Below, piece by piece: positions 20,892 through 21,272 of a stretch of 64,000 bases of DNA. Location: the sequence record PV018827; one strand, 5' to 3'. Positions within the stretch are counted from its first letter, which is position 1. The number at the start of each line of letters is the position of its first letter. The notes under the pieces are model-generated. The model was not told the origin of the DNA and did no database searches. It saw only the letters and a list, made by a program, of their open reading frames with translations. A program made the position numbers and the translations under genes. This stretch comes from Escherichia phage KM01.

Positions 20892-21272
20892 TCTCCAGTG
20901 ATTTCCATATCGGCTTTATCTCCTTTCTTAGTAAGGAGGATTGCTGGTTTATTCTTACTCTTCATATACTCAAACATGTGCATAGAGCCTCTTGACTCTC
21001 CATCCCAGAAGACTATCACTGCATCTGCATACCCCCATATCTACGTTTCTAAGTATCCCAGCCTTTTTGCCGAGAGTGTTCCATGAAGGAATGAAACGTT
21101 TGATGGGTATGTCATTGTGCTTAGCAACAGCCTCTCCGTGAAGATCTGGCCCTCTTGCACCACCTGATACAACTTCTGAAATCAGCTTGGGGATTTCCTC
21201 TGGAAGCAAAGCCCACATCTGAGTAAAAGAATGCCAGTCTATCGACCGGCTTCCTGCGATTATTACTTTCAT
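20892..21272 (-). pseudogene. DUF2493/SLOG-type Rossmann-like protein gene, apparently frameshifted
   Basis: Track ORF 20970-21272 ([10 protein letters not shown]...VVSGGARGPD...AGILRNVDMG) ends in a non-homologous tail; the expected C-terminus (YADAVIVFWDGESRGSMHMFEYMKSKNKPAILL...) is readable in an adjacent frame after a G5 run near 21029-21033. Confidence 0.4.

Follow-up and report, generated by a model that had tools for sequence, protein, structure and literature searches.

DprA and ShosA, the structures closest in fold to the protein considered here, bind ssDNA (PMC11961720). Phage YAcAr SLOG domains are predicted to act on NAD+/ADP-ribose-derived signals, often with Macro domains (PMC7824862), and a DUF2493 domain is fused to the ICP1 HelB helicase (bioRxiv 10.1101/671271). 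The phiEco32 counterpart of the gene studied here is phi32_35 (gp35, YP_001671780.1), which encodes a protein of 130 aa annotated 'GTP-binding domain'. In phiEco32, gp35 lies between gp36 and gp34, with 4-nt ATGA overlaps on both sides. More distant homologs are known from over 400 phage records representing many hosts, and several phage homologs are annotated DprA-like. The searchable literature on DUF2493, YAcAr and phiEco32 gp35 contains no experimental function for the stand-alone phage protein.

Here we describe a copy of gp35 whose reading frame is broken next to a run of five G residues. It lies in a stretch of 64,000 nucleotides from Escherichia phage KM01 (PV018827), referred to below as the window.

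The gp35 locus

The window is from an E. coli phage of the Kuravirus group (phiEco32-like, Gordonclarkvirinae). An 801-nt query around the locus matched 75 phage records, with identities of up to 99.4%. Over a 24-kb stretch of the window the matches were 96-98% identical, and no record reached 99%. The order sigma factor (gp36), gp35, dNMP kinase (gp34), with overlapping stop and start codons, is retained in the window, where the following features were located:

20882-21272, minus strand: gp35 ortholog, whole broken gene (391 nt, compared with 393 nt in intact copies)
21272-21270, minus strand: gp35 start codon ATG, in an ATGA overlap with the stop codon of the sigma factor gene
21033-21272, minus strand: gp35 codons 1-80 in the native frame, ending AGILRNVDMG (protein identical to residues 1-80 of DE5 and EK5)
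21032-21036, minus strand: G5 run (C5 on the plus strand), placed from the alignments, the indel list and the site survey
20970-21032, minus strand: out-of-frame tail of 20 codons (VCRCSDSLLGWRVKRLYAHV) and premature stop TGA at 20972-20970
20882-21031, minus strand: stranded codons 82-130 (YADAVIVFWDGESRGSMHMF...ITGEWE) and natural stop TGA at 20884-20882
21269-21913, minus strand: upstream gene, ortholog of the phiEco32 gp36 RNA polymerase sigma factor (from the phiEco32 annotation)
19992-20885, minus strand: downstream gene, gp34 ortholog (dNMP kinase / ATPase, from the phiEco32 annotation)

The earlier note on this DNA gave the gene as 20892-21272; the start at 21272 is correct, but the natural end is at 20882. 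The product of the upstream gene gave a weak match to Sigma70_r2. Downstream, gp34 begins at 20885 with an ATG that shares an ATGA with the natural gp35 stop and has a GGAG sequence 7 nt upstream. With these neighbours, a phage sigma factor gene and a dNMP-kinase-like gene, gp35 belongs to the early/middle block of DNA-metabolism genes.

Two further features of the region were observed. A Macro-domain gene (gp37 ortholog, 21936-22376, minus strand; 42 bits) is the second gene upstream of gp35, beyond the sigma factor gene. Further upstream, at 22590-22964 on the minus strand, is a homing-endonuclease-like gene encoding a 124-aa protein with HNH_3 (58 bits) and AP2 (28 bits, below cutoff) matches. 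It lies inside an insertion of approximately 538 bp (about 22592-23128), absent from EK5 and phiEco32, where the Rz-like spanin gene meets the o-spanin gene; in EK5 these two genes overlap. The open reading frames flanking the insertion, of 114 and 57 aa, are both still called.

gp35 is a small SLOG protein

The earlier note's assignment of the gene to a DUF2493/SLOG-type family was borne out by profile searches. The 100-aa open reading frame of the window matched Pfam PF10686 (YAcAr, 'YspA, cpYpsA-related SLOG family', formerly DUF2493) with 29.6 bits over residues 1-65, and intact phiEco32 gp35 matched it with 30.7 bits over the same residues; both scores are just above the gathering score of 28.2 bits. 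The Pfam model spans the first half of the fold only, and it is the N-terminal 65 residues that match it, whereas the conserved WDGxSxG part, which is C-terminal, is in another frame in the window. PHROG 289 matched the window product with E = 1.8e-12 and the intact ortholog with E = 3.7e-25, the score falling from 89.7 bits for the intact protein to 47.9 bits for the window product. The glycine-rich loop SGGARGPD (family pattern SGGARGxD) is in frame in the window, and G37, A39, G41 and D43 were invariant in an alignment of 66 homologs.

A search of PDB sequences with gp35 gave no significant match (best E = 0.058), and only a comparison of folds was informative for structural relatives. An AlphaFold2 model was made of an intact ortholog (P0001) rather than of the window product, and had a pLDDT of 94.1 and a pTM of 0.89. 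It contains strands at residues 2-7, 33-36, 57-59, 85-90, 111-117 and 120-126. In a Foldseek search of the PDB the best neighbours of this model were ShosA (8zva) and DprA (4ljk, 3uqz), with probability 1.0 and a TM-score of 0.65 on the query. The modelled intact protein resembles the Rossmann-fold (SLOG) domain of DprA and ShosA, although sequence identity to them is only 16-25%. Unlike those proteins, phage gp35 is a minimal 130-aa domain lacking SAM and other domains, and DNA or nucleotide binding by it is conjectural. Intact gp35 is a small stand-alone SLOG (YAcAr/DUF2493), DprA-like Rossmannoid protein, and the model predicts a Rossmannoid SLOG/DprA-like fold for it.

One other member of the family has an unusual structure. 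A 116-aa homolog (P0010) from a 622-bp ENA contig is identical to Kuravirus gp35 over its first ~40 residues, through SGGARG, after which it continues as a YAcAr sequence that is clearly of another kind. Such a structure suggests recombination or chimerism of the SLOG gene itself, or else a chimeric assembly.

A 2-bp deletion breaks the gp35 frame

Alignment with intact relatives identified the lesion as a deletion of 2 bp (AG, or equivalently GA), which destroys the Glu81 codon. Intact relatives have ATGGGGGAGTAT where the window has ATGGGGGTAT; at window positions 21029-21038 the intact allele would be GGGGGAGTAT, and the window allele is GGGGGTAT. The codons at this site are ATG GGG GAG TAT GCA in DE5, EK5 and two metagenome contigs, ATG GGT GAG/GAA TAT in phiEco32, one IMG/VR contig and one metagenome contig, and ATG GGG G-- TAT GCA in the window. 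The run, which is the one G/C run of five or more in gp35, is still G5 in the window, as in its closest relatives DE5 and EK5. Relatives read GGGGG-AG-TAT across the deletion junction, which is at the 3′ edge of the run between 21032 and 21031.

These alignments both support and correct the earlier reading of the site. The note had put the frameshift at a G5 run at 21029-21033; the break is indeed at a G-run, but the run is at 21032-21036, 3 nt away. It had also taken the fifth G to be an extra base in what should be a G4 run. The intact frame in fact reads GGGGGAG (DE5, EK5) or GGGTGAG (phiEco32), so that the comparison with orthologs proposed in the note upholds a frameshift at the run but replaces the extra G with an AG/GA deletion.

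In place of a single uninterrupted frame of 130 codons, the window contains two frames. The native frame breaks after codon 80 (...RNVDMG), and codons 82-130 are readable in a second frame, as ...IVFWDGESRGSMHMFEYMKSKNKPAILLTKKGDKADMEITGEWE with the continuation YADAVIVFWDGESRGSMHMFEYMKSKNKPAILLTKKGDKADMEITGEWE, from 21031 to the stop at 20884-20882. As had been noted, the expected continuation is readable in a neighbouring frame, but it skips one residue, the Glu of MG-E-YADA. The resemblance to an intact gene is not due to chance, and the same 130 codons form one open reading frame in most relatives: a tblastn search with the intact protein gave a single uninterrupted match of 390 nt in 57 of the 60 best-matching phage records, the three exceptions being the EcM-vB1, EcK-vB and EcP-vB genomes. 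A search with a pattern tolerating any spacer length found the gene intact in both IMG/VR matches and in all three JGI metagenome matches, and the window allele was not found in either collection. The pN/pS ratio among intact gp35 copies was 0.02-0.09, which points to strong purifying selection on gp35 outside the window strain.

The broken gene has otherwise changed little. Compared with phiEco32 gp35 it is ~96% identical in DNA sequence, with 11 synonymous and 2 non-synonymous differences. Compared with gp35 of DE5 and EK5 it has 3 synonymous and no non-synonymous changes, and the protein is identical over residues 1-80 and 82-130. The stranded codons 82-130 show no non-synonymous difference from DE5, EK5 or phiEco32. 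The 3 synonymous and 0 non-synonymous changes, together with the unaltered stranded 3′ part, therefore indicate that the deletion is very recent. Its most likely and simplest origin is a slip in replication at the 3′ edge of the G5 run, involving 1 nt of G microhomology.

The truncated product lacks half of the fold

Translation of the window allele would proceed through codon 80, continue for 20 wrong codons, and then stop. The resulting frame, from 21272 to 20970 on the minus strand, encodes 100 aa rather than the 130 aa of Kuravirus gp35 orthologs. It consists of 80 native residues and the 20-aa foreign tail VCRCSDSLLGWRVKRLYAHV, which has no counterpart in any intact homolog. Past the break, the 66 aligned homologs show no variation at S94 and G96 and conservation of 90% or more at Y82, A83, D84, W90, D91, G92 and M100; position 81 itself is variable. 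The C-terminal YAD...WDGxSxG motif is not in the same polypeptide as the N-terminal part, as it is encoded only in the other frame, downstream of the deletion.

Mapped onto the modelled intact protein, the break comes where helix 70-82 ends, with three strands and one helix still to follow. The window product is without three of the six strands (beta4, beta5 and beta6, the first at 85-90), alpha4 (helix 95-106) and the WDGxSxG loop. From the conservation and the predicted fold, it is very unlikely that a 100-aa half-domain ending in a foreign tail could fold or function. As it lacks the last strands, helix 95-106 and the WDGxSxG ligand loop, the product is almost certainly non-functional.

The deletion is probably genuine

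We consider it likely that the phage carries a real, recent, strain-specific 2-bp deletion that knocks out the gp35 ortholog. Two sequencing runs assembled in Logan encode the identical 100-aa product, SRR33223178 on a 50.8-kb contig and SRR33209174 on a 19-kb contig, so that both runs carry the allele in assemblies separate from that of the window. Alignments of these contigs with the window, of 15.8 and 11.3 kb respectively, show 100% identity. We considered whether the two runs represent independent strains and rejected this: identity of 100% over 11-16 kb shows them to be replicates of one strain.

The whole window was compared with EK5, and no other window-specific frameshift was found in a conserved gene. 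When differences were mapped onto the EK5 annotation, a 1-nt indel at 2618 was intergenic. A 2-nt difference at 24364, where a TA repeat is 2 nt shorter than in EK5, was inside EK5's annotated 59-aa hypothetical CDS; phiEco32 has no gap relative to the window at this place, and this indel is therefore specific to EK5. The remaining indels between the window and EK5 are compensating pairs in divergent stretches. A further difference from EK5, of 1 nt at about 54077, alters the N-terminus of a small open reading frame (53882-54127, minus strand); the region around it is divergent (84% identity).

The presence of the same deletion in two run assemblies, and the lack of any other strain-specific frameshift, make an assembly error unlikely. 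The alternative is that the phage has an intact GGGGGAG and that two bases were lost in base-calling or consensus building beside the homopolymer. The lesion does adjoin a G5 run, a classic site of indel errors, and the G4 sequence of EcM-vB1, EcK-vB and EcP-vB at the same run shows that errors here do reach databases. The perfectly preserved stranded 3′ part would also be expected from an artefact. However, the missing bases are an A and a G, and the run has kept the length that it has in DE5 and EK5. The allele was moreover assembled independently from each run, and the window shows no pattern of homopolymer indels. We regard such an artefact as improbable. As the two runs are replicates of one strain and not independent lineages, it is possible that a platform makes a systematic error next to the G-run, and likewise that the deletion was picked up during laboratory propagation of one stock.

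Recoding at the G-run

If the deletion is real, a full-length protein could still be produced by a +1 ribosomal shift on G_GGG_G, with tRNA-Gly re-pairing from GGG to GGG, and would lack only Glu81. Such a slip would be fully cognate and would restore ...MG-YADAVIVFWDG... (junction peptide NVDMGYADAVIVFWDGESR), position 81 is variable in the family, and a metagenomic allele with a G6 run (below) would need the same +1 shift. The relatives, however, use one frame (57 of the 60 best records), and the shift site is thus not an ancestral feature; the window allele itself occurs in this strain only. The 0-frame codon after the run is GTA, which is neither a stop codon nor a markedly rare one. A run of five G residues is also too short for efficient transcriptional slippage. 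No stimulatory RNA structure was detected in the 96 nt downstream, where the minimum free energy was -19 kcal/mol (z = -0.19 relative to shuffled sequences). The locus therefore shows neither the conserved two-frame arrangement nor the stimulatory structure, stop codon or rare A-site codon of a programmed frameshift. At most, low-level spontaneous slippage may occur on the run, and we attach very little probability to recoding as a source of full-length gp35.

The earlier note had offered three explanations for the broken frame, and recent pseudogenisation is the best supported of them. A homopolymer sequencing error is disfavoured by the shared allele in the two run assemblies and by an assembly that is otherwise clean. 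Programmed frameshifting, which the note itself had ranked as less likely, finds no support in single-frame relatives and a downstream region whose predicted folding is no stronger than that of shuffled sequences.

Other alleles at the same run

A protein search with gp35 revealed a second truncated homolog (P0007), a 101-aa product ending ...NVDMGGVCRCSDSLLGWRVKRLYAHV. Its DNA has a G6 run, ATGGGGGGAGTAT. This allele is present on contigs of ERZ13616796, ERZ13616587, ERR4398817 and ERR4398780, which represent several metagenome samples or assemblies. The contigs are 99.93-100% identical to each other and ~95% identical to EK5, have different neighbouring genes, and contain no other coding indel. 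The out-of-frame tail and stop of the G6 allele are the same as those of the window, but the lesion is +1 rather than -2. We take G6 as a second credible null allele, independent of that in the window and carried by a natural population.

On the ERZ13616796 contig (L010), from a Kuravirus lineage whose SLOG gene is also broken, there is no Macro gene at the corresponding position. A 176-aa DUF3310 protein (L010 3391-3921) replaces the 297-aa dNMP-kinase-like gene downstream of gp35, and an HNH_3 endonuclease gene is located at 1393-1806, a different place from that in the window.

In the EcM-vB1 group of Kuravirus the run is shortened to G4, a lesion of -1 compared with -2 in the window. The window differs in background from both the G6 and the G4 alleles, with 10-12 synonymous differences. 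EcM-vB1 has approximately ten further single-base homopolymer shortenings relative to EK5. In the part of the record compared (PV574017.1, 20000-69999) these include A6 to A5, T5 to T4 and G5 to G4 changes, and no CDS is annotated there after record position 45894. Since this genome is full of homopolymer under-calls, its G4 allele is probably a sequencing error, and the 85-aa 'DUF2493 protein' of EcM-vB1 is probably a product of that error. Three independent frameshift alleles at the run were considered and rejected on these grounds, leaving two that are credible.

Discussion

The disruption of gp35 in the window is most probably an ordinary recent loss-of-function mutation that involves no new mechanism. 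Two credible frameshift events on the G5 run indicate a small mutational hotspot, and are too few to argue for selection. It is nevertheless conceivable that the run acts as a contingency site for adaptive loss or on-off switching, with null alleles selected in hosts in which gp35 carries a cost, such as those with a defence system that senses it. The window deletion of two bases and the +1 allele of the ERZ/ERR lineage have both affected the same 5-nt run in a gene of 393 nt, no other truncating allele was found among close homologs, and the G6 allele persists across several samples. Against this, most genomes are intact and the credible events number only two, the third allele being a probable error. 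Phase-variable homopolymer tracts are typically of 7 or more bases and vary reversibly in length within populations. The gp35 tract is far shorter than known tracts of this kind, at only G5, and its G5, G6 and (doubtful) G4 alleles occur between lineages. The window deletion, moreover, is not a simple change of tract length and could not be reverted by slippage. The run is broken up in many of the intact relatives (GGGTGAG in phiEco32, L006 and L014), and there is no sign that it is maintained. Adaptive switching is on this evidence highly improbable.

A related proposal is that the G-run at codons 79-81 is a recurrent 'off' site, at which nulls are kept because a DprA-like SLOG protein is a liability on some hosts. 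If that were true, gp35 could trigger a host defence or duplicate a host function, and escape would have occurred twice independently, in the window strain and in the ERZ/ERR metagenome lineage. We think this quite improbable too.

The effect of the ordinary loss of function on the neighbouring gene can be considered from the sequence. Ribosomes translating the broken gp35 would stop 85 nt before the gp34 start, and translational coupling from gp35 to gp34 may be weakened. As the gp34 start has its own GGAG 7 nt upstream, the polar effect on gp34 is probably modest.

The finding has little significance beyond annotation, although it is mildly notable that null alleles have arisen more than once at this G-run. 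The appropriate annotation is a gp35 (YAcAr/SLOG) gene that is frameshifted or disrupted, rather than a 100-aa 'DUF2493 protein' and a 31-aa open reading frame. Caution is needed with the database frameshifts at the same run in the EcM-vB1 group, which are probably sequencing errors. The phage is evidently viable without the gp35 protein, and gp35 is evidently a conserved but dispensable accessory gene. It is dispensable in at least one propagated Kuravirus strain and in one natural lineage, despite strong purifying selection elsewhere. The strain is thus a natural knock-out in which the role of a widespread phage SLOG/DprA-like protein may be investigated.
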